The notes under the pieces: model-generated
Database searches by the model: none
The model's input: only the letters and a program-made list of their open reading frames with translations
Told to the model about the DNA's origin: nothing
Part shown: in pieces, positions 19,132 to 61,455 of the stretch
How the letters are laid out: each line of letters begins with the position of its first letter
Position numbering within the stretch: the stretch's first letter is position 1
Translations under genes and position numbers: made by a program
DNA from: a virus
Taxonomy: Duplodnaviria; Caudoviricetes
IMG/VR virus record: IMGVR_UViG_3300031555_003108
Coordinates: 1-64,000 of that record
Direction: 5' to 3' (one strand)
DNA length: 64,000 bases

Positions 19132-20364
19132 TTAGTAACTATATCTATTAAGAAATACTTGGCATAAATTTTGTTTGGCTTCTTTAGATAACTTATGACC
19201 TAAGCTGTTACAAATAGCTTCTAAACACTTAAGGTAATCAGCTTCCTCTAAACGTAAGAAGGGCTTACTAATAGTAATTACTGTAGCAAGTGTCTCCGGA
19301 AAAGGCTCTGCGCCAGCTTCTCTGATTCTAATAAACTTATAATTGTAGTTATCAGAATATAGTTTAGTTTTATTTATGTCCGATTCTATTTGCTTTCCTT
19401 TATGAAATCCGTGACCATCATATTCAATAGCAATGGGTTGTCCTTTAAAATTAAATAGAATATCTACATTTCTGTATTTAGTGCCTTGCAGCTTAGGTGG
19501 ATTTTTAATCTCTGCTTCTTCTCCAAAAATAGCTAGCAAAGCCGCTCGCAAGAAACGTTCGCTTCGAGAAGATTGACTACCCCTGCTTTTGTTAACACAA
19601 TTTATACAGCCATAATAATCATCTCTTACAGCATTATACAGCTGAGTTTCATAATCCTGCCCGCAGTCAGGGCAATGAAAAGGAAGAATTACTCCAGCAG
19701 TTTTTGTAAAATTCAAAACTACTTTATAATCGTTAGAGCGTTGCTGAAGCGCCTGCCAAAAGGTATCTGGTATTTTATCTGCATTATTACGATTAAGCCT
19801 AAGCAGCTCAGTATAACCAAAGCTCGAAAGCACCGCGTCTTTACCTTTAGCTTTATCTATAAATAGTTTATCAGGTAAGCGGTCCCAAACGGGTTTAGCA
19901 ATTTCTACTATGCTGCTTTCAGCATTAACTTTATTTTTAGCTACACCGTTTTTCTTGGCCGCACAACTTCTACATAGGACCATATCTGCAGCGGAGTAAC
20001 TACACTGATTATCTCGTGATCTAGATCTATAGCCATAAATATCCCTAGATTTTTTAGAGAGCTCAATGCCAGTACAGCCTGAACACTTAAAAATGTATTG
20101 AACTTTTCGGTCGTCTACCTTTAGCTTAGGCCAATTCAAAGGGTCCTCGTCTAGTTGTACCTGAGGCTTATTTATCTCAATAGTTTTTTCTACGTTCAAA
20201 TAATTTAATAAGCTTGCACTCTGGTTTGAAGCGGGTATTAAGTTACCGTTATCAAAGCCACCTATCTCATGCATGTAATATATCTGAGCAGTATTCTGGT
20301 TACCGCCTTCGTTAAGTTCACTCAGCTCTTCATAAAGCTTCATGAATTCATTATTTAAAAACAT
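19132..20364 (-). CDS. Zinc-ribbon plus Vsr/DUF559-like endonuclease with an N-terminal leader peptide
   Basis: Two CxxC...CxxC pairs; SRSE...VDILF...IAIEYDGHGFH...DINK...FIRIRE; N-terminus MFLNNEFMKLYEELSELNE. Confidence 0.7.
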   Translation of the reverse strand: MFLNNEFMKLYEELSELNEGGNQNTAQIYYMHEIGGFDNGNLIPASNQSASLLNYLNVEKTIEINKPQVQLDEDPLNWPKLKVDDRKVQYIFKCSGCTGIELSKKSRDIYGYRSRSRDNQCSYSAADMVLCRSCAAKKNGVAKNKVNAESSIVEIAKPVWDRLPDKLFIDKAKGKDAVLSSFGYTELLRLNRNNADKIPDTFWQALQQRSNDYKVVLNFTKTAGVILPFHCPDCGQDYETQLYNAVRDDYYGCINCVNKSRGSQSSRSERFLRAALLAIFGEEAEIKNPPKLQGTKYRNVDILFNFKGQPIAIEYDGHGFHKGKQIESDINKTKLYSDNYNYKFIRIREAGAEPFPETLATVITISKPFLRLEEADYLKCLEAICNSLGHKLSKEAKQNLCQVFLNRYSY

Positions 20365-20396
20365 ATACAGTATTCTCCCGTAATTTCAGTACTGTA

Positions 20397-20406
20397 TAAT
20401 TTAGCA
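20397..20406 (-). promoter_or_regulatory. Class D motif TGCTAAATTA
   Basis: Exact motif between the upstream terminator and the gene at 20364. Confidence 0.7.
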
Positions 20407-20408
20407 AT

Positions 20409-20443
20409 AAAAAGGCTAACTACCGGTTAAGATAGTTAGCCTT
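20409..20443 (-). terminator. Intrinsic terminator
   Basis: aaggctaacta/tagttagcctt stem followed by a U-tract on the minus strand. Confidence 0.75.
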
Positions 20444-20469
20444 CTACTTATTCTATTTATGTTAGTATA

Positions 20470-20892
20470 TTACTGAAGCCTCTTAATGCCGCCACCAAAA
20501 GATCTTACAGCAATATCACCAAACTCAGAAAAGAAGTCGTAGCTCTTATTCCAAGTATAAGTAAAAGCGTAGTATTCATTTTGGTTAATCGGGTTTATCA
20601 CGCCCAAGATATCTTCTACTCCGTCGCACTCACTAGGTACGCAGAGCATGGACCACAGATCTGCAGAGTCTAATATATTATGAGAGACAGCATAAACGAG
20701 GCATCCGTATTCTTCTTCTACTTCTTTAATCTTCTGCCAAAGCTCCGGTTCCTGATCCGCCCAGAAGCCAGCGTAGTTTTCAAAGAAGCAAGGTGTTCCT
20801 GCCTTAGACTTAAACTTTCTGATATAAGGTTTGTAGATGTCGAGTATCTCCAAACATTGTACTGCGATTTCTTTCTGTTGTACTTTATCCAT
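20470..20892 (-). CDS. Hypothetical protein, paralog of 24951..25355
   Basis: Both share QKEIA-x-QCL, LVYAV-x-H, WSMLCV and FSEFGD...G-x-I-x-RL. Confidence 0.75.
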   Translation of the reverse strand: MDKVQQKEIAVQCLEILDIYKPYIRKFKSKAGTPCFFENYAGFWADQEPELWQKIKEVEEEYGCLVYAVSHNILDSADLWSMLCVPSECDGVEDILGVINPINQNEYYAFTYTWNKSYDFFSEFGDIAVRSFGGGIKRLQ

Positions 20893-22850
20893 AGTATCCT
20901 CCTTAATTATAACTGATTATAGAATTCTTTAAGCATCTGCATTTTATTAGCCAGCTCCGAAGGTGAGCACTTCATCAACTCTTCAAACCCCAGTGTGCTT
21001 ACACCAAGGTCAGCTTTGCGTAGAATCTTACCGTAAGCTGCTATAGCATTACTGAGTTCTTTCTTAAGCTCTTCTGTCATAGTTACTCCATAATAAAATC
21101 TAAATGCTTGCAATCATCGAGCCAAGTAAACATAGGCTGGAACTTATCGCCCTCGAAGTATCCCAGAGAATAGTAAGCTTCGAAGTCATCATCGTTACAT
21201 TCCTCATACAGGATATTGCACTTCTCTGCAAGGATATAATCCCCGTAAGCATCAAGGTCAAGCTCGTAGTAGTTATGATTATAACTCGATCTTTCTTTCA
21301 GGTGGATCATTGCTTTCTTATCTAGCTCGAAGCTAAAGGTTACTCTTCTTGGATACATATCTTACTCCTTAATCTATCTTAAATACTCTCTTAAACTCTG
21401 CAATCTTTTTATTCTTACCCTCTATGATACCGTAGCCATAAGCATGCAGAAGCCCCTGCATAACTACAGGTCTTACATCTTCTGGAATAGCTTCCATCTG
21501 ATTCTGAAGTTCTATAACTACCGGACATACAGGTTCAGCCCACTCGCTATAAGTTCCATCTGAGCGCTGTTGAATAATCTTTCCATCTTCATACTTATAC
21601 CAAGTATCTCCATACATAAATTCAAATGACTTCATCTTTAGTTCTCCTTATACTGAATAGTAATATAAAGTTCGTTAATGGTTCCTACAGGCGTAGTCTG
21701 CCAACTAATGATTTCTACATTAGGGTTTTCTTCTAACCACTGGTTAAGATGATCCGCCGCATTATATCGATCATTATGTGTGCCCTTATAAACCAGATAA
21801 GGATGGAAAGTCTTAAACTTAATCTTCATTCTCGTCCTCCCAATCTTCCGGATAATCATACCAGTACTCTTCTTCGTAGTAATCCCCAATGTCATCATCA
21901 AAGAATCTATTTACTATAGTAAAGTAAGATCCATCATATTCTGCCCACCAAGTACCAAAATACCCAGGAACAGTTTTAATAACCTTAGCAATATCAGACT
22001 TAGACTTACAAGCTTCAAAGCATTTCTTTACATCCTCGATATACCTCATAGGCATAGTAAGAAGCTCCTCGAGAGATTGTTCATACTTCTTAACCTCCCA
22101 AGCAGGAAGAGGATCAGGCTTCTCTCTCAAGGTAATAGTTAAAGCTTCTGGTTTGATACCCATGAGCTTCAAGGTATTCTCTAGGTGCCGGTCCAGAAGT
22201 TCTTTCTGCTCTGGAGTAAGGTCTGCTTTAAAGTTAATTTCGAATTTCATATTAATTTACTCCGTATTTCTCTTTAAGTTCTTTAAGTGCTCTGACAATC
22301 ATAGCCACGTTGTCATGAGCACATCTATCTAAGATATCGTCTATCTCATCAAGTATCATGTTCTTACCTGCTTCGTAGCCTTCATCATACTTTGCTTCTT
22401 TGGCAATAGCATCCGTCAACCAGTTATTACTCATAGTCATCCTCCGGCATATCAGAGTAGTATTCGTCTTCATCTCTGTACCAATACTTAGGATCAATAA
22501 GCGACTGGCCAAAGAGATTGTACCACTTTCCACACTCACACTGTGTAGCTCCTTCATAACCGCCTTCGAGAACAACCTCCTTACCACAGGAGCAAAGACC
22601 AACAGCAGGATTCATATAGGTCCAGTCACGGACTTCAAATTCTGCTTCTGTGAGACGTTCATCAGTAAGGCAAGCTTCGTAGTTAGCCTTTGCTTCCGGG
22701 CTCATACAGGAGAAATCTGGCTCACCAGAACGAGTGGCAGGAAAACAGAACCCGGCTTCAGGATCATCCTTGTACCAGAAGTTAATGTAATACTCCTTGA
22801 TTGTTTCAGGGGTTCTTTCTTTTATAATCTTAAGCATTATGTACTCCTCC

Positions 22851-23000
22851 TTAATTAACTTTCATTCCGTTAGCATTACTTACTACTGTATAACGACCGT
22901 CACATTCTGCGTAGTCTTCTACGTCAGACCAATCACCCTGAGTAACTACCTTATTAGTTCGATTATCATATACGGTATATGTATCAATAAAACTTGTCAT
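22851..23000 (-). CDS. Small hypothetical protein (49 aa), not in the ORF track
   Basis: AAGGAGG RBS; MTSFIDTYTVYDNRTNKVVTQGDWSDVEDYAECDGRYTVVSNANGMKVN. Confidence 0.6.
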   Translation of the reverse strand: MTSFIDTYTVYDNRTNKVVTQGDWSDVEDYAECDGRYTVVSNANGMKVN

Positions 23001-23047
23001 AACAATCTTCCTCCTTTATGTTTAAGGTTCCAAGACAGAAGCCCAAG

Positions 23048-23136
23048 GAACTCCTATTCGTTTTACACTCGATTCGAACGAGACACAGAAGGCTCTCCGT
23101 TTCTGTGGCAAACCAATCTTACGTAATGAGAAGTTC
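23048..23136 (-). ncRNA. tRNA-like structured RNA (Y RNA/YrlA-like candidate)
   Basis: Non-coding leader behind a consensus promoter; T-arm CTCG-TTCGAAT-CGAG, stem CACAGAA/TTCTGTG, closing stems TTACG/TGTAA and GAACTTCT/AGGAGTTC. Confidence 0.5.
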
Positions 23137-23185
23137 AGATAATTTCCTATTGATCATGTAGTTCTTTATCGTCACTCACATATAT

Positions 23186-23214
23186 ATTATACCACAAAAA
23201 CCATATTTTGTAAA
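23186..23214 (-). promoter_or_regulatory. Class A sigmaA-type promoter TTTACA-N17-TATAAT
   Basis: Hand-counted 17-bp spacer and extended -10 TG. Confidence 0.8.
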
Positions 23215-23970: not shown

Positions 23971-23999
23971 ATTATAACATGTTTTCCGTATTTTGTAAA
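23971..23999 (-). promoter_or_regulatory. Class A promoter
   Basis: TTTACA-N17-TATAAT with TG. Confidence 0.8.
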
Positions 24000-33864: not shown

Positions 33865-34635
33865 TTAGTTCTCTACGTACTCCCAATGATAACCACCAGC
33901 AGTTAAGTTAGGATTCTTGCAGCACTCAGCTACGTGTCTAATATTAAGTTGCTTAAAAACATCATGTGCGCTTCTAAACGTACTACCAGTCTCTACACAC
34001 AGCACCGCTCGACAACGAGTACAGTTCTCAGTCATTTTCTTTCGACGTTCTTCATCATGCCGGTAGCCGAGAGCATTAGTATTACCTTTGCTACTCTCAG
34101 CGAGCTTGAGCTTTACCTCCTCAGTGTGATGCTTACCTTTTATCCACGGTGTTGAACCGAGTTTTGCTTTACTCATTTTTTCTCGTGACACTTCAGACAC
34201 AATCTTATCTTTATGAACGCGACTAACATCAGCCACAAACTCTTGGTATAGCTCTAAATAAATATTTGGGTCTACTTGATCTAGGTTATCAGACAAGGCA
34301 ACTCCTCTTAGCATCAATCCTAAAGCATTTACCATGCCAGTATGTAATCTACCAGAAGAACAAAGACTAAGATAGTAGTGCGCCAGTATATGTTGGTCAT
34401 GTGTTAAATATACTGTTTGATTGGCTGCAGCGATTGAGAATATCATAGCTTCTTTTCTTGTTTTGCAGTTATGCTTGTACTTAAAATAACACACTGGTAT
34501 GACATGATGTTTTGCTGTTTTAAAAGATTCCTGCTCTTGAGATTCTGCATCTTTAATCAGTTTACAGTACTGATCTAAGTAATTGTTATCAATAATTTCG
34601 TCTAGACCAATTAAAAGGTCTCTAATCTTTTGCAT
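33865..34635 (-). CDS. HNH homing endonuclease with NUMOD3-like and NUMOD1-like modules
   Basis: KHHVIP...LTHDQHILAHYYL; SEVSREKMSKAKLG, GKHHTEEVK; AVLCVETG...GGYHWEY. Confidence 0.8.
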   Translation of the reverse strand: MQKIRDLLIGLDEIIDNNYLDQYCKLIKDAESQEQESFKTAKHHVIPVCYFKYKHNCKTRKEAMIFSIAAANQTVYLTHDQHILAHYYLSLCSSGRLHTGMVNALGLMLRGVALSDNLDQVDPNIYLELYQEFVADVSRVHKDKIVSEVSREKMSKAKLGSTPWIKGKHHTEEVKLKLAESSKGNTNALGYRHDEERRKKMTENCTRCRAVLCVETGSTFRSAHDVFKQLNIRHVAECCKNPNLTAGGYHWEYVEN

Positions 34636-34760: not shown

Positions 34761-36080
34761 TTAAAAATCAGGATTAGCTTTATCCCTTGGATCTCTGATA
34801 TTAGAAACCCAAGTAGGAAATCTCAAAGACTCAGTTCCATCTGCATTTCTGCTGGACTCAAAATATTTGACTTCTACAATCTTATTCATAAGAAGATCAG
34901 GCTGCTCCCAATAAAGCTTTCTCTCTTCATCGCTAAAGCCAGAGCCTACCTTAACGATATTGCCGCCTTTATAACGTACGTGAATTGCTCCAAGTGTTCC
35001 GGCGAGTCTTCCTGATCCTTCCTCATAGCCAACTACAAGAAGGTCAAGAGACTGAAACTTCTTTACCTTCATCAGATCCCAAGTACGAGAGAAACGATAG
35101 AGAGACTTTGTGATATTAATCATTACTCCCTCTCCGCCCTTAGACACCACATCATCAAGAAACTCCTGTACCTTACTTACATCAGCGCCTCTATAGAGAA
35201 TAGGAAGCAGCTCAATGTGAGAAATGGGCACAGCAGCATAGCCAAAGAGTCCTTCAAGAAGATTTCGTCTCTCGTCATAAGTATGAGTGCAGTTCTGAGT
35301 GCGCCATTCATCGATATGCATACCGTCAAAGACTCTATAAGTCAAGCCTCTCTTAGGGGTATCACCTTTGAGTCGGATAATCTTAGATGCTGCTTTATAT
35401 GCTTCCTTACTTTCCATCTCAAAGTAGTTGCTAATAGTAAGCTCACCATCAAGTACAAGACCTGCCGGAAAAGCATCTTTCATTTCTTCTTCTATTTCAA
35501 CCAAGCCTTCTACACGCTGACCAACTCTGGAATAAAACGAGATGTTTCCGTGTTCGTCTTTCATTGCAATCAGACGAAAGCCATCAAGTTTCGTAGTAAT
35601 AGCAAACTCCTTTCCTTCGAGTTTAGCGGGTTTCTCAAAGTATTTTTCGGCAAGCATTACGGAAAACTGCGGTATCAAGTTCGGAATCACAGCATTGATA
35701 GACTTCGCATCGACTCCAAGGTTGAGATCTTTGCAAATAAGGAGCTCAAGAAGCTGTGCACACTCAGTATCGTCCTGTGCGAGCCACTCCAGAGCGATCT
35801 GGCAGACAGCTACGTCGTAGTCTCTTCCGGTATTATGCTCTGCAAGGTAATCAAAGAGGTCGAAGACAGTGAGAGGACACTGAACCTCTCCTACGCTTAC
35901 TTCCTTGTAGAGTTTCTTAACCGAAATTCCGTATCTGGTGTAAGGATCGAAGTTAATCTTAAGGTACTTCTGAATTATCTCATCATCCTTGTACTTCTGC
36001 AGCACCGACTGCTTAAACTTCTTAGAGCCGTTGGAAGTGATCTCCTTTACGAATTCATTAAAATGCTGAAGTGTAGTCAT
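34761..36080 (-). CDS. lig: ATP-dependent DNA ligase
   Basis: KLDGFR, VLDGEL, EGVMI, LMKVK, VGSGFSD, SLRFP. Confidence 0.92.
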   Translation of the reverse strand: MTTLQHFNEFVKEITSNGSKKFKQSVLQKYKDDEIIQKYLKINFDPYTRYGISVKKLYKEVSVGEVQCPLTVFDLFDYLAEHNTGRDYDVAVCQIALEWLAQDDTECAQLLELLICKDLNLGVDAKSINAVIPNLIPQFSVMLAEKYFEKPAKLEGKEFAITTKLDGFRLIAMKDEHGNISFYSRVGQRVEGLVEIEEEMKDAFPAGLVLDGELTISNYFEMESKEAYKAASKIIRLKGDTPKRGLTYRVFDGMHIDEWRTQNCTHTYDERRNLLEGLFGYAAVPISHIELLPILYRGADVSKVQEFLDDVVSKGGEGVMINITKSLYRFSRTWDLMKVKKFQSLDLLVVGYEEGSGRLAGTLGAIHVRYKGGNIVKVGSGFSDEERKLYWEQPDLLMNKIVEVKYFESSRNADGTESLRFPTWVSNIRDPRDKANPDF

Positions 36081-43251: not shown

Positions 43252-43746
43252 TCAGTTTTCTTCATATAATACAATATCACCGGTTCTTAAGGTTTCTTTC
43301 AAATCGATAACTCTTTGGTTCTTAGAGCCGCGATACTTTAATCTAAGGTCCTTTAGCTCTTCAACAAACTTTCCATCAACTACTACATCGATCTTTGAAC
43401 CTATAAGGTCCTCGAAGATTTCTTCTAGTTGATAGCCAGTCCAAAGCCAGACAGTTTTATCCGGATACACTTCCTTAAATCTTCTGGCAAGTCGACATAC
43501 CTCAACAAGGTTCTTAGGGTGCAAGGGTTCGCCACCAAGAATACTCAGTCCGCTAATATGGTCCGGCTTAGCGAGTTTGAGGATACTGTTTAAAGTATCC
43601 TCAGTAAACTCCTTGCCATGATCAAAGTTCCAAGTTTCCGGGTTGAAGCAGTTCTTACATCTATGCTCACATCCACTAACGAAGATGCTGATCCGGCAGC
43701 CAGGTCCGTTAGCAATATCTAAACTTCTAATTTGACTATATCTCAT
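43252..43746 (-). CDS. nrdG: Anaerobic ribonucleotide reductase activase (radical SAM)
   Basis: NGPGCR, CEHRCKNC, LGGEPL, RGSKNQR. Confidence 0.93.
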   Translation of the reverse strand: MRYSQIRSLDIANGPGCRISIFVSGCEHRCKNCFNPETWNFDHGKEFTEDTLNSILKLAKPDHISGLSILGGEPLHPKNLVEVCRLARRFKEVYPDKTVWLWTGYQLEEIFEDLIGSKIDVVVDGKFVEELKDLRLKYRGSKNQRVIDLKETLRTGDIVLYEEN

Positions 43747-45974
43747 TAGCAACACTCACGACAGTCCATATGAACATGTCTATCTTTAATCTCAGCAGTT
43801 CTACCTTGGTTAAAGAACTGAGTTCCAATGTATCCACAAGTTCTTCTTGCAACATTCATCTTCGACTGATCTCGGTTTCCGCAGTTAGGGCACTCCCAGA
43901 CAAGCTTACCTGACTCATCTTCTACGATGAGGATCTCACGATCCCAGCCACACTCCTGGCAGTAGTCTGACTTAATATTAAGTTCAGCATACATGATGTT
44001 ATCATAGATGTACTTGATCACAGTAAGTACTGCTTCGAGATTATTCTCGAGATTCGCACTTTCAATATAGCTGATCGCACCGCCGGAAGAAAGTCTCTGG
44101 AACTTCGCTTCTACTGCAAGCTTCTCAAAAGGATCAATCTCTTTAGTTACATGAACATGGTAACTATTAGTAATATAGTTCTTATCTGTAACTCCGGGAA
44201 TTTCGCCCCAGCGCTTCTGCAAGCACTTAGCAAACTTATAAGTAGTTGACTCGAGAGGGGTTCCGTAGATTCCGAATCCGAGATAGAGTTCCTTATTCCA
44301 GTCATCACACTTCTTATTCATGTAACGCATGATCTCAAGTCCGAGTTCCTGACCTTCCTCAGTAAGTAGGTCCTTACCAATGAGTTCTACTACACATTCC
44401 CAAAGTCCGGCGTATCCAAGTGAGATAGTTGAGTATCCACCAGTAAGAAGCTTATCGATGGTCTCACCCTTCTTTAGTCGAGCAATAGCACCATGCTGCC
44501 AAAGGATCGGAGCGACATCACTTACTGTACCCTTGAGTCTCTCATAGCGGCAAAGCAAAGCTTTATGACAGAGCTCGAGTACTTCATCAAAGTTCTTCCA
44601 GAAACTATCAAGGTCTTTAGCGTAGTTAGCACCGCTTGCACCGCACGCTACATCTACTAGGTTGACTGTGACTACACCTTTATTAAATCTACCGTACCAC
44701 TTCTGCTTTCCGTTCTCATCATACCAGGGGCTCAAGCAGGATCTGCAACCCATAGGTGCGAAGCAGCCGCCTTCTTTGAGTTCCTTCATGATCTTCTCAC
44801 TAATGTAATCCGGGACTAGCCGCTTTGCAGTGCACTTCGCCGCAAGCTTAGTGAGGTACCAGTACTCGGAATCCGGATACACATTATCTTCTTCTAGAAC
44901 ATATACAAGTTTCGGGAATGCGGGGGAAACCCAGATACCTTTCTCATTCTTGATTCCCTCACGTCTTTGAAGAAGTACTTCTTCGATCACCATCGCGAGA
45001 TCCTTCTTGGTTCTTTCATCTTCTACTTCATTAAGATACATAAACACCGTGATGAAGGGAGCTTGACCATTAGTAGTGAGTAGAGTATTAACTTGGTACT
45101 GAATAGTTTGCACTCCGCGCTTTACTTCTGTGCGAACTCTCTTCTCTGTAATTTTGTTAATTATGCTAGTACGGTATTTAGATGGTAGTAACTTCATAAA
45201 CAGCTTAATGATCTTAAAAGAATTAAACTCTTCTTCTACTTCGGCTCTGATCTTCTGTCTAGAAATATCTACGAAAGGAGCCAGGTGGGAGAGGGTGATA
45301 GACTGTCCACCGTACTGGTTACTGCTTACTTGTGCGATGATCTGCGTAGCGATATTACAAGCAGTCGCGAAACTATGAGGCTTCTCGACTAGAGTTCCGG
45401 AAATTACGGTTCCGTTTTGAAGCATGTCTTCGAGATTAACGAGGTCGCAGTTATGCATCTTCTGAATAAAGTAATCTGAGTCATGGAAGTGAATAGTTCC
45501 TTCGTCATGCGCCTTCACTACATCCTTAGGAAGAAGAAGTCTTCTAGTAATGTCCTTACTAGTTTCTCCAGCCATGTAGTCTCTCTGAGTAGAGTTAACT
45601 ACCGGGTTCTTATTTGCGTTCTCCTGCTTGAGTTCCTCATTACTTAGATTAATCAAACTAAGAATCGAATCATCGGTAGTGTTAGACTTTCTTACTAATT
45701 CTTTATTGTACCTATACCGAATAAACGCGCGAACGAGATCGTTGTAATTTCGGGAGATAAGTTCGTCTTCGATAAGATCGTTAATGTCTTCAACCTTAAT
45801 TGCTCTCTTATACTCCTTACACTTCTCTTCTACTATGTTAGCAAGCTGATCAATCTTTCTAGGACCAATCTGCTTTGATTTGATAACTTCCTGATTAGCA
45901 TGAGAAATTGCCTTGATAATCTTGGACTTATCAAATTCGACTTCTCTGCCATCACGCTTAATAACTCTTTGCAT
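43746..45974 (-). CDS. nrdD: Class III anaerobic ribonucleotide reductase with ATP cone
   Basis: VIKRDG ATP cone, MGCRS, YITNSYH, two CxxC, RRTCGYI; start at MQRV. Confidence 0.95.
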   Translation of the reverse strand: MQRVIKRDGREVEFDKSKIIKAISHANQEVIKSKQIGPRKIDQLANIVEEKCKEYKRAIKVEDINDLIEDELISRNYNDLVRAFIRYRYNKELVRKSNTTDDSILSLINLSNEELKQENANKNPVVNSTQRDYMAGETSKDITRRLLLPKDVVKAHDEGTIHFHDSDYFIQKMHNCDLVNLEDMLQNGTVISGTLVEKPHSFATACNIATQIIAQVSSNQYGGQSITLSHLAPFVDISRQKIRAEVEEEFNSFKIIKLFMKLLPSKYRTSIINKITEKRVRTEVKRGVQTIQYQVNTLLTTNGQAPFITVFMYLNEVEDERTKKDLAMVIEEVLLQRREGIKNEKGIWVSPAFPKLVYVLEEDNVYPDSEYWYLTKLAAKCTAKRLVPDYISEKIMKELKEGGCFAPMGCRSCLSPWYDENGKQKWYGRFNKGVVTVNLVDVACGASGANYAKDLDSFWKNFDEVLELCHKALLCRYERLKGTVSDVAPILWQHGAIARLKKGETIDKLLTGGYSTISLGYAGLWECVVELIGKDLLTEEGQELGLEIMRYMNKKCDDWNKELYLGFGIYGTPLESTTYKFAKCLQKRWGEIPGVTDKNYITNSYHVHVTKEIDPFEKLAVEAKFQRLSSGGAISYIESANLENNLEAVLTVIKYIYDNIMYAELNIKSDYCQECGWDREILIVEDESGKLVWECPNCGNRDQSKMNVARRTCGYIGTQFFNQGRTAEIKDRHVHMDCRECC

Positions 45975-46061
45975 AATTTCCACCTTTCTATAGTAATTAT
46001 CTCCCAAAGTTCATTTACCTGGGGTAATAAATTTAGCAAATTTTTAAGCTATTTCGGGTTA

Positions 46062-50017: not shown

Positions 50018-51142
50018 TTAATTCTCCTCTACAACGTATTCGAAATGTAACCCTTTTACGGACTTTAATTTTCCTCGTAAATTTGATTTTACACTTATCC
50101 CATATTTTTTACAAGCTTGACCAACTGAAATAAATAATTCGCCAGTCTCCGTACAACGTACACTTTTTAAACGTTTGATGTTATAATCATTAGGAATTTT
50201 CAATTTAAAGGCTCTTTGCTTGAGACTATTTATACTTCTACCTAAATAATCGCTACAATACTGCCAGGTATTGGCAGGTAAGTTTTCTCGTAACCAAGCG
50301 TCTTCTTCAACCGTCCAAAAAGTAGCCTTACTTAACTGAAGACGAGCTGCCTTCGAGGTTATACTACTAGGGCTTCTATTCAAAAATTCAACACAGGCGG
50401 TCATCGACGTTGTAGCATAATTAGCTATTAGCCACTCCGTATCTTCGTCTGTCCATAAGCGGTCAGAAATTTGTAAATTAGTTACTTTGTGCTCTATTGA
50501 GCCAGGTGTTCTACTTAAGTATTGAGCGCAAGCCTCTCTACCTAAATCTACATAGTTTAATTTTAGCCAGGTTTCTTCTTCAGAAGTCCAAATACGATCC
50601 GAAAGCCCGAGTGTACAGACTCTGCCTTTGACCGCTGCAGGTGTTTTATTTAAAACTTTGGCGATATTTTCCACAGTTTCTGCTGAGGTGCCGGTACGAT
50701 AAAGTTCGGCTAGTTTAGCATCATCTTCAGGCGACCAATAGAAATCCAAATTTCGTTTTATCTCAGTACAAATCTGCATAATAGCATCTTTAGAAAAGTG
50801 TAAAATGTCGGGTTTACCGCTCATTGCGAGAATAGCTTTAGCGTTACTCGTTTTTAGCTTACCAGTAGTGCAATTAAACAAAAGCCAATGAGCATAAAAA
50901 TGATCTGAATAAGTCAAGTCTACTAATCGATTGTGCGGGTCATTTAGTGAGATATCCTCAGTTGAAGCAAACTTTGAATCCTTTGAATAATCTGAATTGT
51001 AATAGCTTCTTGGAATTACATGATGCTTTTCAGTGTATTCAGTACTGGAAAAAGAAAAAGGCTGCTCAATAAATGACAAATACTCTTCCAAGTACTCGTT
51101 ATCGATAAAACAACCCAAAGATAATAAATAAGATTTTAACAT
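50018..51142 (-). CDS. HNH homing endonuclease with four Myb/SANT-like repeats and a NUMOD1-like tail
   Basis: EKHHVIP...LTYSDHFYAHWLL; W[ST]-x-E[DE] repeats about every 45 aa; SVRCTETGELF. Confidence 0.78.
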   Translation of the reverse strand: MLKSYLLSLGCFIDNEYLEEYLSFIEQPFSFSSTEYTEKHHVIPRSYYNSDYSKDSKFASTEDISLNDPHNRLVDLTYSDHFYAHWLLFNCTTGKLKTSNAKAILAMSGKPDILHFSKDAIMQICTEIKRNLDFYWSPEDDAKLAELYRTGTSAETVENIAKVLNKTPAAVKGRVCTLGLSDRIWTSEEETWLKLNYVDLGREACAQYLSRTPGSIEHKVTNLQISDRLWTDEDTEWLIANYATTSMTACVEFLNRSPSSITSKAARLQLSKATFWTVEEDAWLRENLPANTWQYCSDYLGRSINSLKQRAFKLKIPNDYNIKRLKSVRCTETGELFISVGQACKKYGISVKSNLRGKLKSVKGLHFEYVVEEN

Positions 51143-51234: not shown

Positions 51235-52962
51235 TTAAAGCTCCAAAATAATTTTTCTTAGCTCATCCTGTAAACCTGTTGATAAGCTACTAGAATCTTT
51301 ACCATCTACTAGGTACTCGCCCAAATCTTTCTTTGTTGATACTATTTCCTGAACTCGCTCATCAATAGTTTCCTTACACACAAGTACCTTAATATAAGCA
51401 GGTCTAGTATTAGAAATTCTGTGTACGCGTTGATAACACTGCTCAAAAAGGGCGAAGGTATACGGAGTATCAATAAAAATCAGGTACATAGACGAATTAA
51501 GTGTATAGCCAACACCCATCTTAGAACACGAACCCAAAAAGACTTGCTCATCTGAGTCCTCTTGGAATCTAGCAACATTATTCATTACTGTTGCATCATC
51601 TACATCTCCTGTATTTAACGTATATCGAAATCCTTCTAATTTTGTGGCCAACTGATGCAAAGGCTCTTTAAACACAGAAAATACTACAACCTTTTCACCT
51701 TGAGACACAATCTCTTGGATATATTCAAAAGCTCTTTGTACTTTTACTGAATCAATACTTTGAGTAGTAAGCACGTTTGGACATGCTGTGGCCTGCCTCA
51801 ACCGTGTAGTAAGCGCAAGTAAATTTCCAGACTTGAGTTCAATCTTATCTGCCTCTTCTTTGACCCCTTCTTTGATAGCCTCATAGAACTTTTGTTGGCT
51901 CTCATCCATCTCAAGGTATTCAGTATCTATAGTAAGCAGCGGAATATCAGCTCTAACATCATATAAAGTACGTCTAATAGAGCAGCTATCAATTTCCTCT
52001 CGAAGTACCTCTAAGTTCTTATAACCAATAATTTGGCTATTTCCGAAAGGGCCACCAAAATTACAGTACTGAGATTTGAAATTCGTAAGTGTCGCACTTT
52101 CGTTATCAGTGAACTTTAGACTAGGAAAAGCAGAGAGAGGGCTATTAACTATGAGAGTACCAGTGGCTGCTACCTTAAAGTCTGCGTCTAGTTTCATTAG
52201 GTTATTATACTGAGTAGTATCCGGTGCTCCAATCTTATGAGACTCATCGAAAGCTATTAACCCAAATTTATTTTCAGAAGTCTTTATAGCCTCGACAATC
52301 TTGGGGTCTCTAATAGACTCAACGTTAATTAAAACGAAGAACTCATCGATTTTATTCTTAAGCTGCTCAGCTCTTTTAACCATAGAGTGATATCTGGTAG
52401 TACCGGTTCTAGTAACATACTTTCCGATAGTAACTACCGACTCGGTCGAAAACTTCTGAATTTCGCGTTCCCAGTTTCCTCTAAGTCCGGCAATTCCGGT
52501 AATTACGAGACAGTGCTCTATAATCCCTCTCTTCTTAAGAGTTTCTGCAAAGAGGATCATCTCGAGAGACTTACCAACTCCGCAGCCGTCAAGTAACAAA
52601 GACTTCTCCTGTTTAAGTAGAAAGTCTACAGCTTCTAATTGGTGTGGGAAAGGGGAAGCCTTAAACGAAATCTTCTCAATCTCGGAGAGGGCCTCAAGAT
52701 TATATTTTCTGTGTAAACGAAATCCGTCTGATTCCGGTGTATCTAAAAGTTTAAGTTGTATATCGTCCAGGAAAGTAAGACTATCTAAAACTCTGCCTAG
52801 GTAGCAAATGGGAACCTCCCAACATTTCTCCTTCTTGAAGTAATGATAAGTAGGGAGTGTCTTAAGGGCGTCTACTATGTACTGATTAAAGTCGAAATCT
52901 ATAATTAGTGAGCTTAAGCCCGAAATCTTTTTTCCCGGAGATATTTCAAATATTCTTATCAA
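51235..52962 (-). CDS. SNF2-family helicase/ATPase
   Basis: DGCGVGKS, FDESH, TGT, LRQ, GVGYTL, QCYQRVHRI. Confidence 0.88.
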   Translation of the reverse strand: MIRIFEISPGKKISGLSSLIIDFDFNQYIVDALKTLPTYHYFKKEKCWEVPICYLGRVLDSLTFLDDIQLKLLDTPESDGFRLHRKYNLEALSEIEKISFKASPFPHQLEAVDFLLKQEKSLLLDGCGVGKSLEMILFAETLKKRGIIEHCLVITGIAGLRGNWEREIQKFSTESVVTIGKYVTRTGTTRYHSMVKRAEQLKNKIDEFFVLINVESIRDPKIVEAIKTSENKFGLIAFDESHKIGAPDTTQYNNLMKLDADFKVAATGTLIVNSPLSAFPSLKFTDNESATLTNFKSQYCNFGGPFGNSQIIGYKNLEVLREEIDSCSIRRTLYDVRADIPLLTIDTEYLEMDESQQKFYEAIKEGVKEEADKIELKSGNLLALTTRLRQATACPNVLTTQSIDSVKVQRAFEYIQEIVSQGEKVVVFSVFKEPLHQLATKLEGFRYTLNTGDVDDATVMNNVARFQEDSDEQVFLGSCSKMGVGYTLNSSMYLIFIDTPYTFALFEQCYQRVHRISNTRPAYIKVLVCKETIDERVQEIVSTKKDLGEYLVDGKDSSSLSTGLQDELRKIILEL

Positions 52963-54295: not shown

Positions 54296-54826
54296 TTATT
54301 TAATAACAGAATCAATACGAGAAAGTATGTCTTCTATAATTTCCTGTGTGGCTTCAGAAAGATTTTTCTCTGGGTCGGCTTTAGCTTTATTATAATAAAA
54401 ATCACTAAGCTCTTTTATATCTCCCGAGGCTATAGAGAAGGAACCCCAGTCGCAGATCATCTCGAGTATATAGATATAAGGCATGTCCTCGCCGTCCCAG
54501 TACTCAGGATGATGCTCATTATTCATATAATGGTGTTCCCAAGCCTTTTCATATTCAGGAGTCTTCTTTCCGTCGCCGAACCACTTCTGAGCGTAAGGTT
54601 CAAACTCTTCTTCTGAGAACTTAGATTCGTCGTGCTCGGCTATGAGATCATTAAATACTTCTATATCTATATTCTCGAAAAGGTCGGGACACTCTTTCTG
54701 GAGCCAAGAAGAAAACTGAGTAACTCTTTCTTTATGTTCTATAACATAGTTCTTATATTCTTCCTGATAACCGTCGAGGCCTTCAGTAATCATATCTAAA
54801 AACTTATAAGCTTGAAGTAAATTCAT
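54296..54826 (-). CDS. DUF5662-like HD-superfamily phosphohydrolase
   Basis: H...HDESK...AWEHHY-x-x-N-x-HHPEYW...MP...EMICDW. Confidence 0.75.
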   Translation of the reverse strand: MNLLQAYKFLDMITEGLDGYQEEYKNYVIEHKERVTQFSSWLQKECPDLFENIDIEVFNDLIAEHDESKFSEEEFEPYAQKWFGDGKKTPEYEKAWEHHYMNNEHHPEYWDGEDMPYIYILEMICDWGSFSIASGDIKELSDFYYNKAKADPEKNLSEATQEIIEDILSRIDSVIK

Positions 54827-54852: not shown

Positions 54853-56055
54853 TTAATCCCAAAGATTTTCGTAAAGCTTGAAGTCGTCGGCTATAGAAAA
54901 AGATTCAGTAAGACTTTTATGTTCAGGACTTCCTGTCTTAGGAACATGAAAGTGAGTTTTAATTTTTAATAATAAGTCTTCCCAGCCGACGGCGGATTTA
55001 GTAGCTATTCGCTGTCCGTCCATATCTAAATGAATAAAAAATAGATCACCAAATTTACACTCTACTTCTAAACTAAGGTTATACTCGTCTCCATTGGTAA
55101 AGGCTCTCTGCTCTTCGTACTCGAAGCCAGTGTCATTCGGCCCGTTTACAGAAGTAAAAATAACAGAAGAATCTTTATGCTTCTGCATATAAGCTACTAA
55201 CTCAGCAAATTTTTCTTTATTAGTTTTAGAAGAAGTTGCTGAAGCGGACTGAGAAGCTTTAGGAGGATTCATAAGCTGCCATTCATTAAGAGATTCAGTA
55301 AGAAGGTCGTCATAATCTGAAGTTCCTTCGTTCGGAAGAAACATATAGGTGTCAGTAAGAATTTCTAAAACTTTCTCATAGCCTTCGTAATCGTTTTGAT
55401 AAACTACTTTGCCATCCACGAAAATACTAAGATAGAATTCATCAGTATATTTATTAACACTTACTATAATAGTTCTATCGAATTCATCATTACCAGTATT
55501 ATAGTGCTCACTAAGGTGGAAGCTGTATTCCTTAATATCCTTGTAAGTAATGCTCTCTAGCTCGGAGGAAGCATGGTCTATATGATACTTAATAAGTTTT
55601 TCAAATCTTTTCTTGTAGCCGCCGGTAGAAGGAGTTTTATTGTTCATAGCAACCCACTCAGTAAGTAAGTTCTTATACTCAAGCTCTCTAGTTTCCGGAA
55701 CCACTATATAAGGTCTAAGAGTTTTTAAAAGCTCAGGCCAGCCGGTTCCTTTTAGTTCCTCATCAAGTTGTCTATTAACAAATATTCTTACTTGCCAATC
55801 TTCTGAAGCAGGGTCAATAGAAATTTTATATTCTACTACCTGTCCGTCATCGTACTGCTCAGCGAACCCGAGCCTGTCCTTAGTAAGTAAGCCGACGAAA
55901 AGATAATCTACGTCAACGGGAAGATTGTCACCATGATATCTAATTAACTTCGCAAGCCGCTTCTTAAAACCTGTATTAGAAGAAGTACTCACTACTGAAG
56001 CTGTATTAGAACTCGCAGCAGGCTTATTTATATATTGCCATTCTCTTAATTCCAT
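54853..56055 (-). CDS. Three-repeat protein behind a class D motif (possible polyprotein)
   Basis: Repeats begin LREWQYIN, LTEWVAMN and LNEWQLMN; C-terminus SLTESFSIADDFKLYENLWD; TGCTAAATTA at 56155-56164. Confidence 0.78.
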   Translation of the reverse strand: MELREWQYINKPAASSNTASVVSTSSNTGFKKRLAKLIRYHGDNLPVDVDYLFVGLLTKDRLGFAEQYDDGQVVEYKISIDPASEDWQVRIFVNRQLDEELKGTGWPELLKTLRPYIVVPETRELEYKNLLTEWVAMNNKTPSTGGYKKRFEKLIKYHIDHASSELESITYKDIKEYSFHLSEHYNTGNDEFDRTIIVSVNKYTDEFYLSIFVDGKVVYQNDYEGYEKVLEILTDTYMFLPNEGTSDYDDLLTESLNEWQLMNPPKASQSASATSSKTNKEKFAELVAYMQKHKDSSVIFTSVNGPNDTGFEYEEQRAFTNGDEYNLSLEVECKFGDLFFIHLDMDGQRIATKSAVGWEDLLLKIKTHFHVPKTGSPEHKSLTESFSIADDFKLYENLWD

Positions 56056-56304
56056 GTTAAGTTCTCCTTATAATAAAAGCTCCCGAGAAAGCCAGCTCTC
56101 AGAAGCATACTATCAAATGAGTCTATTTGTCGCATCCACTTTTTCCCATTCATTTAATTTAGCATAATATTTTAATTAATTTATTATTTTAATAATCTGA
56201 TAATTTATCAGGTATGAAGGATTAAGGAAGAAAGAAGTATGTTATTTATCATATATGATAAATTATAAAAAGAACTTAAGTATTTCTACCTAAGTTCTTA
56301 TATT

Positions 56305-57090
56305 TTAATTATCTGCTTTTATACATTCTTCTTCTGTATATTCATCTACAGGTTCTTCAACAATTTGTTCTTCTGTTTCATAGGTGACCGAGATCTCAAT
56401 ACCGAAACGAGACTTTAATAGTTCTTTTGCTTTTTCTCCTACTTCATTATTATTAAGAGTAAGATTAAATAAAGCTTCTTTTAGATGAGTACAGGGAACA
56501 CATTCTCCACATACTTTTTCTCCTTCATATATAACAGCCTCGCAGGAAGTGCAGAGTTCTACCAAGTAAGGAAATTCTTCCATAAGTGTTTTAACTACAT
56601 CTGTTTTATTAAAGTACTTAAGAGGATAATGTGTATAGATTATTTTATCTTCTTGTATTTTACATGCCGCCTTAATTAAGTTATTAATATTTTTTTCATG
56701 GAGTATCGCTTGGTCATTTTGATTATAACCCAAATACAAGGTATCTTTATGTTCCAGGATGGGAATAATATTGCACAGCCAAAAAATAGGTTGAGCTAAT
56801 CCTCTGCTATTATAAGCGTCGCCTGTGATCCAATTCGATTCTACATGAATTACTTCATGTTCAATTTTAATTTTAGGAAATTGTTTGCGCAGTTCCCTGA
56901 GAATTAAGAGCTGACTCTCATATTCTCTTCTAAGCTTTTGTGTTCCTGTAAGATTGTGATCAATCGTGACGGCACAAACAGAAGTGTTATCTTCTGCTTC
57001 TTTTACTAATCTCGCAAGAACAAGAGCAGAATCAAAGCCACCAGAGAAGAGAACTATTTTTCTATTTCCTTTTTCTAAAGTATAAGACAT
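56305..57090 (-). CDS. QueC-like PP-loop ATPase with a zinc site
   Basis: IVLFSGGFDS; CTSC...CGECVPC. Confidence 0.72.
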   Translation of the reverse strand: MSYTLEKGNRKIVLFSGGFDSALVLARLVKEAEDNTSVCAVTIDHNLTGTQKLRREYESQLLILRELRKQFPKIKIEHEVIHVESNWITGDAYNSRGLAQPIFWLCNIIPILEHKDTLYLGYNQNDQAILHEKNINNLIKAACKIQEDKIIYTHYPLKYFNKTDVVKTLMEEFPYLVELCTSCEAVIYEGEKVCGECVPCTHLKEALFNLTLNNNEVGEKAKELLKSRFGIEISVTYETEEQIVEEPVDEYTEEECIKADN

Positions 57091-59325
57091 TTAGTTTTCT
57101 CCTCTCAGAAATTCTTTATGGTCATTGCTATCAAGGTATTCAGCAGTCAAAGGAGTTCTATTAAGAGGAATTCCCTGCTTATCAAGATACTTACATACTT
57201 CAAAGCTAAGGTCCTCAAGGGCTTCCTTATAAGAACCAATTAAACAACCATCATGCAGAGTTCTTACTTGTTTACCAAGGAAATCTACGAAGTCATAGAA
57301 CTTCTTATTCTGGTCCTCAAAGGAATCTACAGTAGGTTCCTGGTCGAGAAGGCAACCGGCCAGATTAAGACCATCGCGCCAGTCCTCGCCTTCATGTTGA
57401 TAGTCAGGTTCTCTACTTACTTTGTCAAGGGTTTCTTGAAATTTGTTCGCGTCAATAAGTCTCATATTATCCTCCTTCAGTTATATCAATAAGTTCTTTC
57501 TGCCAACTAAAGATTTTTCTTTCCTGCAGAAATCTTTCTGACTCATACTCATTGAAAATATATTTCATGTAAACATTAGAAGCTTTAATTACAAGACCGT
57601 TACCAGCTTCAACTACCAGTTCGGCAGTATCCTCACCTAAAAGGCCTTTAGTTACATTAATATTAAATTTATAATTTTCTGAATATGTTGAGTGCAGGAA
57701 CTTAAGAACATCATTATAAAATTGTGTAGTCATAGTATTCCTCCTAAATATTCTTTAATATATAATACAGCAGCGACAGATAGATTTTAACATGAAATAT
57801 ATTTTTCTTATCTTAAAACTTAAACTCATTTTCTATATAGGTTATTTATTATATTGTTTTATATATGAGATTAAGGTAAAACCTTAACTCATTTATTTTT
57901 TTTCATGTCGCCGGAAAAGAAAAAGAACGATACCCATTAGATACCGTTCTTTTTATATTATACTGCTACCTTTGCAAACTCTTCTCCACGGTCGCAGAAG
58001 CTATAAATCATGCTTCTAACAAGTCCCCAGCTCATGCCACTATGATTCTGAGCTTCCATAAGTTTAAGGGCGTGAGATAAGTCACAACCCTCGTTGAGAG
58101 CTTTTACAATCTCAAGGCAGCAACCAAGCTCCATACCGTGATAAAGATCATCTAATCTAATAGGAACACACTTATCCCAATCTTTCCAATATTTTTCATC
58201 GATAATCTTATGGCCTTCTTCAATCCAATGTTTAACATTATTATCCATATTATTTTTTACCTTTCTTAAAATATATTTTTAATATTAATATTATACAATA
58301 TAAAAATCTAAATTTTGATAAAGATTACAAATAGATAAGGAACCTGCTCATGCGGAAATACATCTTCTATATCATCTCCAATATTTCATAGACTCAGTAA
58401 TTTTCTTATAATTATCTCTTACTTCTTGCTGAGTCATTTTTCTTACTTGCTCCGGCGTGAACATATCTTCTTCGATAGTAGTAATTTTAGAAATTGCTTC
58501 TGCAGCTAAAGAAGGTCTGGCTTTACAGATACCCGCTTCAATCAGATATTCCCCGAGGTCTTTTAGAATATCGTATGTATTTCTATAATAACCGTAATCT
58601 GTTTTTGTTTCTACCCCAAAACGCCTTAGATAATATTCTGCAGTAGCTACCCTGCTTTGTTCTTCCTGCTCTTCTTCATAGGTTTTAGTATATTCTAATT
58701 TTGTTGATTCGTACATATTAAGCCTCCGTGTTATTCAACCCAGTCCTCGAAATGATAGATTCCGTCTTTGCAGTAGCTGTGGCTATAAGCTTTCATAAAT
58801 TCATTATATTCTGCCACAGTCATATTTTCTTCATCTATAGTTGCCTCGTATTTATACCTTCCACTTGGTACTCTGAAAAATAGCCCGAGGGTGCAACCCA
58901 TGATTAAAAGCACGCATAAACCAGCTGTGCCAATATAAAGAATAGCCTTTGACAACTTTTCGTTAGAAAGCTTTTTATGATCCTTAAAAGAATAGATTAA
59001 CAAACCTATAAGAAAGATGATCATAGAAAAACCAAAGATGCCAATAACATTAGTTGCCCAAGGCGCCATCATTGTAATAGATTCTTTAGAAATAATATTT
59101 ACATGATCCATTTGGTTAGTCCTCCAAAATATTTAGTTATCATTTCTTTTTCCATTTGTCATGTTCCGCCACGAGATACTCAAATACCTCAGGTGAAACT
59201 AAACGCTCTAAAAGTTCAGTACGAACCTCGATAAAGTGATATGTATTATCAAGATAATTATATCCACATTCAATACAAGTACCGCAAGCAAAGCCGCGAG
59301 TATTTTTACAACTAGGACATTCCAT
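57091..59325 (-). other. Short hypothetical genes, including a two-TM membrane protein (58731..59111)
   Basis: RBSs, class C promoters and terminators between units. Confidence 0.7.
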
Positions 59326-59433
59326 TAATACTTCCTCCTATTAATTTCTATATAATATTATACAGTAGCAATCTGCCTAAAATAAAGGAAAAAGAAAAAG
59401 CTTAAAGATTTTACTCTCTAAGCTTTTATTATT

Positions 59434-61341
59434 TTAATTATTGTTCATGGTTTCGGCTTTATACTCTCTAAAGTATTTTAGCACTTCTTCTTTGGTTAAT
59501 TTAACTGGCCCATTTGGGTCTGTAACTTTTTCAAGCCAAGCTTTATAGTTATAGTCAGTATTTCCATAAAGTGCAACTGCGCTTATATCAGTTGCATACT
59601 TTCCCATATAATTATTATATGCAAGAGACAACGCCGTTGGATATTCTGTAGCAAAATTTTTAAGATATTTTAAAGTGTTTTTCCTATTTGTGTTAGCAGC
59701 TTTTTTAAATAAATCTTTTATTGGTAACCGGTCTACTGCTGGCATGCCTTTGCTTAATGTTACTAAATCTCTTGAGTTATAATTAAACTTTTGTTTACAG
59801 TACTTTGAAAAATGGCTCCAATCTACATTTACAGGCTCTAGTGCAGTTATATTAGTACGAATAGCGTTTGTATTTTTGATGAACCAGTCGGTATAAGCTA
59901 TCGCCAAACTTTTCTCAGGAGACTCTGTAGTAAGTTGTGTAAGGAATGCTTGAATTGTATCGGCACTTTTAGTTTTGTCTGCGAAGGCTTCTTCTGCATT
60001 AAATAGTGACTGGCCTGTATTATAGATCGCATAAATATCTTTTATATTTAGCCCATGTTCTTGTATTGCTTCTAAGAAAGCTTTGTAGTTGTATTTTTCA
60101 TTAGTTGTTATGTCTGCAGTAGAGGTAGTATTTTTAGATAGTGCCGCGTTATATGCTATATTATAGCCATTAGTATTCTTATACTTTGTTAACTCATTTT
60201 TAACAAAATCGATAACTGCTTCTCGAGAGCTTGTAATTTTGTAGAAGTATTCCATAATAGAAGGTTTTTTGAGTGTCTTAGCTCGTTTTATGCTCAAGTC
60301 AATCTCTGGGATATTAGATTCTTCTTTTGACTGATAAACATAGATTGTGAGGTCTTGCTCTTTTACTAATTTACGAAGCCACATTACATCAGGTGCAGTA
60401 TTTTGTTCGTTATCATAATTATTTTCTTTATAATTAGAAGGTAGAACAATACCGACTATGCAGTCTTCTATCCTTAGATACGGCTGATCGTCTGCTAGCC
60501 ATACTCTAAACTCACCTTCATTAAGATTAGTGTGCTCTTTTATATAATCTAAAAGTCCCGGTATTTCTTTATAGAGGTCAACAAAGTATGGAGACAGAAT
60601 CTGCGTTCTACAGAAGCCTCTTAGAATAAAGCCTTCGACTACTCTTGATTCTATAGGACGACGTTTTACTAAATGTTTTTCTATTTCTTCTATATCTTCT
60701 GTATATGATATTAGAGTATCAGGCTTAGTTTCACGTCGTTCTTCGATAAAGGCATCAAAAAAGTTTTTTATTTTATCATAAAAGTCAGTTCTTCCAACGT
60801 CAACACCTTGATGCTGTTTGAGTGCTTGTCTTATATTATCATTTAAGTTGATTGTAAAGCTACCAAACGAAGTAATAAGTAATTCAGTTCCATCTTGTAG
60901 CTTCGCTGCGCCATATACGTGCATAGTGCTGCCGGGGTGGTCGAAGTCAGTGCTAATGTTAGCACCTTGTAATTGTTGTACTCTATCCTCAAGCTTTTCT
61001 TGGCTTACAGCAATACCATATTTCCATTTTTTTGGCGCACGATAAGCATGACTAAACAATTGACGAGAGAAAGATACAAATGGACGTTTTTTATGCTGTT
61101 TTTCTCCACGAGGTGTTTGAGTATCCGTTTCTTTCTGTTGAGAAGCTTTGATACGTCCTCTGCCTATAATAGCAGCTAAAGTATGTATATCTTCTACAAA
61201 GTAACGTAATACACCTTCTATAGTGGTAGCTTCTTCTCCGTAAACTACTTCAGCTCCAGGAGTATCAAATTTTTCTTCTAGGCCATTATTAATATCTGAA
61301 AGTTCTTCATATATACGTAAAAACTCTTCATTTAAAAGCAT
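59434..61341 (-). CDS. Large protein with a leader peptide; possible ADP-ribosyltransferase-fold N-terminal part
   Basis: N-terminus MLLNEEFLRIYEELSDINNGLEE; VLRYF...FVSFSR...NEGEFRV; TGCTAAATTA at 61377-61386; terminators on both sides. Confidence 0.6.
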   Translation of the reverse strand: MLLNEEFLRIYEELSDINNGLEEKFDTPGAEVVYGEEATTIEGVLRYFVEDIHTLAAIIGRGRIKASQQKETDTQTPRGEKQHKKRPFVSFSRQLFSHAYRAPKKWKYGIAVSQEKLEDRVQQLQGANISTDFDHPGSTMHVYGAAKLQDGTELLITSFGSFTINLNDNIRQALKQHQGVDVGRTDFYDKIKNFFDAFIEERRETKPDTLISYTEDIEEIEKHLVKRRPIESRVVEGFILRGFCRTQILSPYFVDLYKEIPGLLDYIKEHTNLNEGEFRVWLADDQPYLRIEDCIVGIVLPSNYKENNYDNEQNTAPDVMWLRKLVKEQDLTIYVYQSKEESNIPEIDLSIKRAKTLKKPSIMEYFYKITSSREAVIDFVKNELTKYKNTNGYNIAYNAALSKNTTSTADITTNEKYNYKAFLEAIQEHGLNIKDIYAIYNTGQSLFNAEEAFADKTKSADTIQAFLTQLTTESPEKSLAIAYTDWFIKNTNAIRTNITALEPVNVDWSHFSKYCKQKFNYNSRDLVTLSKGMPAVDRLPIKDLFKKAANTNRKNTLKYLKNFATEYPTALSLAYNNYMGKYATDISAVALYGNTDYNYKAWLEKVTDPNGPVKLTKEEVLKYFREYKAETMNNN

Positions 61342-61455
61342 TTGTTTAATTCCTTTCAGTTATAGTTTCTTATGTATAATTTAGCAAATGCTTAGTTCAA
61401 TAGAAAAAGAACAATACGAAGTTTTTATCCTAAGTATTGTTCTTTATATTGTTCT

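Follow-up and report, generated by a model that had tools for sequence, protein, structure and literature searches.

The capsid-targeting sequence (CTS) of bacteriophage T4, on which Mullaney and Black are said to have reported in 1996, is reportedly carried by the internal proteins (IP) IPI, IPII and IPIII and by Alt, and removed by gp21. Encapsulins use short N- or C-terminal cargo-loading peptides, which address unrelated enzymes into an HK97-fold shell. T4 gp21 cuts after L/I-x-E, and the propeptides of the IPs and Alt, 10-19 residues long, direct these proteins to the core (PMC9026906, PMC9958956, PMC5694885). In the CTS of IPIII, targeting depends on residues 4 and 7 and processing on residues 8 and 10; both ends of Alt are trimmed, and gp21 has an LIE-9 near its own N-terminus (PMC9026906). 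Here we analyzed the first 64 kb (the window, 64,000 nucleotides) of a linear viral contig of 91,269 bp with a GC content of 37.7% (IMG/VR record IMGVR_UViG_3300031555_003108). Two unrelated proteins, encoded on the minus strand at 19132-20364 and 59434-61341, begin with the common peptide F-x-x-[LI]-Y-E-E-L-S-x-[LI]-N-E, hereafter the type-1 tag. We think it reasonably likely that this tag works as a propeptide for capsid targeting and represents an extended relative, or analogue, of the CTS of T4.

The 410-residue (aa) protein at 19132-20364 starts with MFLNNEFMKLYEELSELNE-GG, and the 635-aa protein at 59434-61341 starts with MLLNEEFLRIYEELSDINNGLEE-KFD. In the former, the tag (20308-20364, minus strand; profile E 5.7e-13) ends in L-N-E before the GG and is kept in the homologues P0045 and P0101. 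In the latter, tag and linker together (61273-61341, minus strand; profile E 1e-11) end in L-E-E before KFD. An earlier reading of the window, made from the DNA letters alone (the sequence-only reading), had described these N-termini as nearly identical on unrelated proteins. They were found as quoted, and a six-frame scan of the 91-kb contig located the strict motif at these two N-termini only. The shared start is real and far beyond chance. The tag is about 19 residues long, forms a helix ending in the head-protease cutting motif, and is invariant at F, Y, E, E, L and N. The N-termini of T4 IPII and IPIII read MKTYQEFIAE followed by A, and that of IPI reads MKTFKEF...ITE followed by A. The tags carry E6-F7-[ILM]8 in register with MKTYQEFIAE, and many metagenomic copies start with M-[IV]-K-T-E-F. 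This match is suggestive, but it is too short for a statement of homology or for statistics.

The conservation of the tag was compared with that of the proteins behind it. All full-length homologues of the 635-aa protein (41/41) retain the tag, and in homologues down to 34% overall identity it is the best-conserved part. In about 10 of them a NUDIX domain is inserted behind the tag, which remains N-terminal. Homologues of the 410-aa nuclease-like protein also retain it, one with a 150-aa insert straight after L-N-E-A. Metagenome contigs were searched with a degenerate DNA pattern that did not require Met, giving 19 tagged open reading frames (ORFs) in which the tag lies 4-8 residues past the start Met; the remaining matches were internal or in short ORFs, as expected by chance. 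The tag pattern in IMG/VR gave chance internal matches only. A tag profile of 32 positions, searched against 1.84 billion representative proteins (E<=1e-3), returned 58 matches, 54 of which start at residue 1-7. With the tag removed, the bodies form at least 11 groups that are unrelated by BLAST clustering, namely a large family with a shared N-domain, the 635-aa/NUDIX family, the nuclease-like family, coiled-coil proteins and several singletons. Judged by these alignments, the tag is portable, as had been proposed, and strictly terminal. Its range of drift can be seen in a 237-aa protein of a contig from a metagenome-assembled genome (MAG; L115 9379-10092, contig C63), which lies behind the late promoter described below, adjoins a clamp-loader-like gene and starts with the divergent tag MNFLEVFEELTVLNEEVLTE-K (Y to F, S to T).

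The [LI]-x-E motif occurs at 0.0154 per residue in the proteome of the contig, and 17% of the ORFs have one within the first 12 residues and 43% within the first 40. The sites that the sequence-only reading had pointed out in other late proteins (MSIIE, MITE, ILDE and the like) do not exceed this chance level. In the homologues of the 635-aa protein, an [LI]-x-E lies 1-17 residues past the tag core in 41/41, while about 21% is expected by chance in a 15-residue stretch. It marks the junction between a linker of variable length and sequence and the conserved body, and K, A, S, G, D or E comes next. Most other tags have their site in the terminal L-N-E, with A, G or S behind it. The AlphaFold2 model of the 635-aa protein has a helix at residues 5-17, disorder at 18-39 including the site, and a folded body after it. 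The conserved [LI]-x-E following the tag is a predicted protease site.

Both tagged genes of the window are single units between terminators, behind the promoter motif TTGCTAAATTATACA, just as the sequence-only reading had it. The motif lies at 20393-20407 for the nuclease-like gene (core starting 42 nucleotides before the ATG) and at 61373-61387 for the 635-aa gene (45 nucleotides before the ATG), both on the minus strand. Just 5′ of the nuclease-gene promoter, a hairpin with a T-run was read from the sequence at 20414-20441, the terminator of the preceding gene; a second one, at 61407-61444, lies 5′ of the 635-aa gene promoter and is the terminator of 61456-61845. Downstream, terminators follow the nuclease-like gene at 19103-19128 and the 635-aa gene at 59396-59427 (all four on the minus strand). 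The string TGCTAAATTA occurs 7 times in the window, compared with 0.6 expected, always on the minus (coding) strand, and 10 times in the whole contig. A variant, ATGCTAAATTAAAT, is found at 56155-56164 (minus strand), 109 nucleotides before the gene of a 400-aa protein.

Among the tagged metagenomic genes, 16 of 19 have the motif 35-48 nucleotides upstream, compared with 10 of 170 ORFs of the contig's own genome (Fisher p = 7e-14), which bears out the proposed co-occurrence of tag and promoter. The same motif also stands ahead of the neck/adaptor gene at 87499-88221, the sheath gene at 81119-82918 and 80210-80392, and in relatives it precedes the homologues of those genes. Homing-endonuclease-like genes (NUMOD3, Myb-like) have it as well. 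These results indicate that the motif is a general late promoter and not a cargo-specific one, the tagged genes being a subset of the late regulon. The idea of one promoter-tag-cleavage cassette is therefore kept for the portable tag with its conserved [LI]-x-E and given up for the promoter (class D in that reading). The motif TTGCTAAATTAT is the late promoter of the clade, as far as late timing can be deduced from sequence. The tagged genes are dispersed single-gene units without a conserved neighbouring enzyme. Two genes behind this promoter, 33865-34635 and 50018-51142, encode proteins with similar N-termini, one with NUMOD3 motifs and the other with a Myb-like DNA-binding domain; both are probably late-expressed genes of the homing-endonuclease type.

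The bodies behind the two tags were compared with known proteins. The first (19132-20307, minus strand) is a putative Vsr/REase_MTES_1575-like nuclease with zinc-ribbon-like Cys pairs. Its motif D..EYDG..H..K is conserved; the Pfam matches are weak and below the cut-off, and the structure model is of low confidence (predicted local distance difference test 52), too poor for a structure search. The name nuclease, given earlier to the 410-aa protein, is retained here as putative. The second body (59434-61272, minus strand) has by structure comparison an ADP-ribosyltransferase (ART)-like domain at residues about 42-340 and a C-terminal region of helical repeats. No Pfam match was found for the 635-aa protein, and Foldseek with its model returned nothing at E<=0.001. 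With residues 42-340, VIA-align gave Tpt1 (Z 7.9) and DarT (Z 7.8, 7.0, 6.8 and 6.2), and many ART toxins ranked lower. Although these Z scores are middling, the matches agree with one another, and the body appears ADP-ribosyltransferase-like in fold. The PnuC-NadR genes (NAD salvage, 61903-63676) are located 0.6 kb from this ART-like cargo gene. ARTs and Nudix proteins have been reported to be often head-packaged in myoviruses (PMC9503650), and the ART-like fold, the NUDIX fusions and the nearby pnuC-nadR agree with these reports.

The largest tagged family (at L010, L022, L034, L037, L046 and other loci; P0046-P0098) has a conserved N-domain of about 160 aa (AKADTQRLIDFAGEDLANRF...ENDLYYWIK) that weakly matches phrog_28193 and Salicola phage SCTP-2. 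At the C-terminus, BspA-type leucine-rich repeats (LRR), L18-like domains and zinc ribbons are swapped for one another, an architecture that, by sequence comparison, resembles polymorphic effectors.

A second form of the tag, type 2, was found at the other end of a protein. The gene at 54853-56055 (minus strand) encodes the 400-aa protein, which has three repeats and ends in ...SLTESFSIADDFKLYENLWD-stop, preceded by SLTE. The sequence-only reading had noticed this tag-like peptide after LTE in the gene starting at 56055; the peptide is present, a relative has kept it, and an unrelated body carries it too. The module (54856-54912, minus strand) consists of L-T-E and then SFSIADDFKLYENLWD-stop, and in general form reads L-x-E-S, 8-10 residues, D-F-[KQ]-L-Y-E-N-L-W-[DN]-stop. 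It ends the 400-aa protein, a 287-aa homologue and also a 184-aa, Tpt1-like protein in locus L052 (Tpt1 match weak, below cut-off), which is encoded behind a late promoter and between terminators. This protein resembles the other two only in its last 25 residues, the module itself. The type-2 core is also N-terminal on two other proteins, MNLFEEFKAYENLWEA and MKLHEEFKLYEELWQD. The claim that the tag works at either terminus thus holds for its occurrence at both ends, and it is plausible from this distribution that the short variant is usable at either end. The three repeats of the 400-aa protein, each of about 125 aa, begin just past an L-x-E-W junction, and its relative has two repeats; the protein may be a protease-cut polyprotein. 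Moreover, a DUF5662 protein at 54296-54826 begins with MNLLQAYKFLDMITE-G and its relative with MNLLQAFNFLNMINE-G. This N-terminal extension precedes the Pfam domain and ends in I-x-E-G, and could be a third tag type or chance.

The head module of the clade was examined for a protease of the gp21 type, which the sequence-only reading had linked to the tag. No Peptidase_S77 match was found on the 91-kb contig itself, which ends inside a Gp23-family capsid gene. Over its last 180 codons, this gene matches the C-terminal part of a 440-aa protein of the same family at 97% identity in a relative (L104), which comes from a MAG binned as Bacteroidales that holds two related phages; proteins of the contig and this relative are 70-97% identical. 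Directly upstream of the capsid gene in L104 (1546-3462), a 638-aa protein has a Peptidase_S77 domain at its N-terminus (37.3 bits, Pfam cut-off 27), and the rest of it is acidic, coiled-coil and scaffold-like. The expected protease is thus absent from the contig and present in the relative as a fusion to the scaffold. In an alignment with the T4 gp21 structure (5jbl), the His of GHP stands opposite an Ala of the solved chain, and SRG is identical in GVSSRG/GVASRG. We take the aligned His and Ser to be the catalytic positions of T4 gp21. The second phage of the MAG has a terminase, a Portal_T4 gene and the same protease. These genes argue that the clade has a head module of the T4 type, including a protease of the gp21 family.

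More than 1,800 homologues of the protease-scaffold fusion were found, with PF03420 in 120/120 of those listed (P0103-P0222 among them). Three of the homologues and tagged proteins share longest contigs of equal size (206,229, 221,988 and 223,988 bp), and judging by these equal sizes tag and protease would occur together. Most homologues have the conserved I-L-E near the N-terminus at residues 6-8, and the C-terminus is almost invariant, DDLSDLYELAGLKK. This C-terminal peptide is a candidate capsid-binding element by its conservation. It was also considered as the model of the tag, which is only a weak lead since its profile retrieves no tags. Neither the scaffold protein nor the capsid protein is richer in [LI]-x-E than shuffled sequences of like composition (p about 0.1 and 0.33).

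If the tag is a capsid-targeting propeptide, the late promoter TTGCTAAATTAT would give rise to proteins that begin with a free helix of ~19 residues, amphipathic and acidic (F-x-x-[LI]-Y-E-E-L-S-x-[LI]-N) and tethered by a flexible linker, and this helix would dock the protein on the assembling prohead core or shell. Once the shell is complete, the gp21-type protease fused to the scaffold would cut behind the tag's final [LI]-x-E, and the mature enzyme would be freed inside the head. The mature proteins, among them the ART-like protein, the NUDIX fusions, the putative nuclease and the LRR proteins, would then be ejected with the DNA. The shorter variant, [DE][DE]-F-[KQ]-x-Y-E-[NE]-L-W, would do the same job at the N- or C-terminus. 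We infer these steps of docking, cleavage, packaging and injection for the tagged proteins as a group.

Several points weigh against this proposal. The phage is uncultured, and packaging and cleavage are read from sequence alone. The [LI]-x-E motif is short and, at the frequency given above, common; the L-N-E of most tags could be just the end of the helix. The contig itself lacks the protease gene, its presence being deduced from synteny with the relative. A receptor for the tag was not identified, and a predicted complex of the capsid protein and the tag scored 0.01 without controls, which is no evidence either way. The scaffold C-terminus DDLSDLYELAGLKK is like the tags only in LYE.L. The ART assignment leans on middling Z scores of 6-8.

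The same free helix on a flexible linker is also the generic architecture of a short linear motif, and the tag might be a docking peptide for some other shared partner, such as a hub protein of host or phage, a chaperone or an oligomerisation partner, with [LI]-x-E an uncut part of helix or linker. That L-N-E falls within the helical periodicity of most tags, and that no receptor was identified, would fit such a partner. We consider it unlikely, because it leaves unexplained the extreme-terminal position of the tag, the persistence of [LI]-x-E past variable linkers, the tie to the late promoter, the T4-type head with its protease, and the E6-F7 register. The strictly N-terminal position of the type-1 tag would also suit a degron or timing signal, by which an AAA+ protease of host or phage keeps potentially toxic late enzymes short-lived; nuclease-like and ART-like cargo would indeed harm the phage's own replication. 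A C-terminal variant exists on other proteins, though, and no cognate protease or adaptor was seen. Late synthesis merely for destruction would moreover be unparsimonious, and the conserved [LI]-x-E would have no role, so that a degron is very improbable. Both proposals are weakened in that neither accounts at once for the terminal position, the persistent [LI]-x-E, expression from the late promoter and the head of the T4 type.

The invariant F, Y, E, E, L and N of the tag would also be expected of a leader recognized by a modifying enzyme, like those of ribosomally synthesized and post-translationally modified peptides with radical-SAM/SPASM enzymes. NrdG, beside NrdD, is the sole radical-SAM gene of the contig (42% of the genome), and the dispersed tagged genes lack a conserved neighbouring enzyme; we rejected the leader as highly improbable. 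The similarity might finally lie in the nucleic acid, as a recombining promoter/5′-end cassette or an mRNA element boosting late translation, given that promoter, spacing and N-terminus co-occur and that the genes are moron-like units between terminators. The invariant Leu and the invariant Ser are each written with six different codons across the copies, however, and the untranslated spacers from promoter to ATG differ in sequence between tagged genes. These data indicate that selection acts on the peptide and not on the DNA, and the cassette was rejected as having almost no chance of being right.

The setting of the contig was also examined. CheckV estimated its completeness at ~42% of the genome. 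All candidate genes are on the minus strand, with sheath and tail genes at 64-91 kb. The runs holding the contig are animal feces metagenomes (DNA), with no RNA run listed. No useful relative was found among GenBank phages by megablast and tblastn, and none in IMG/VR by a related-locus search. The source is read as a jumbo phage of an uncultured gut host, with a T4-type head. Metabolic and replication genes in the window include NrdG-NrdD (43252-46007), a QueC-like gene (56305-57090), an ATP-dependent DNA ligase (34761-36080) and a SNF2 helicase (51235-52962). An insert on the minus strand (G000 88310-90598; L002 10310-12598) carries an HNH endonuclease gene and a weakly DNA-methyltransferase-like gene between the capsid and neck genes. 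Both genes are missing at the same place in the relative L104, which suggests that mobile DNA has inserted into the head-neck module.

It may also be, although on this we are slightly more doubtful than convinced, that the jumbo phages of a large animal-gut clade employ a descendant of the T4 CTS, extended and bidirectional, that is clipped at [LI]-x-E and defines a set of polymorphic and rapidly swapped injected effectors (ART-like, NUDIX, nuclease, BspA-type LRR and L18-like). Should the tag prove to be a capsid address, it would provide a sequence rule that lists the proteins which abundant uncultured gut jumbo phages inject ahead of gene expression, and these would likely be counter-defence and host-takeover enzymes. 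The injected proteome could then be read straight from sequence, and the tag, being compact, could serve for packing proteins into heads of this kind. The CTS principle of T4 would moreover be old, extensible and usable at both termini.

The system described here was compared with the known ones. Like the T4 CTS, the tag is a short, putative N-terminal propeptide common to unrelated late proteins, with [LI]-x-E at its end and a small residue next to it. The clade has head genes of the gp20, gp21 and gp23 types, its ART-like cargo parallels T4 Alt, for which processing at both termini is known, and the conserved I-L-E near the N-terminus of its protease recalls LIE-9 of T4 gp21. The tag differs from the T4 CTS in being about twice as long (19 versus 10 residues), with the added helix L-Y-E-E-L-S-x-L-N, in its occurrence on far more families of bodies (at least 11), and in having a distinct C-terminal variant. 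Moreover, the protease is fused to the scaffold, and the host is an uncultured gut bacterium, with the whole known through sequence data. In encapsulins, on the other hand, the peptides are not removed by a protease, are unrelated in sequence and are not viral. Phages phiKZ, 201phi2-1 and SPN3US are jumbo phages too, with a gp21-related protease (gp175/gp245) that cuts after Glu, and their N-terminal propeptides are thought to target ejection proteins, including paralogues with conserved N-termini; these propeptides differ in being mostly >100 residues long, in having the motif S/A/G-x-E and in lacking one portable tag across unrelated families (PMC5694885). The polyvalent or MuF-fused effectors of myoviruses likewise include ART and Nudix enzymes predicted to be packaged and injected, but those are addressed through a structural domain to which they are fused (MuF or portal), whereas here the address would be a short cleavable tag (PMC9503650).

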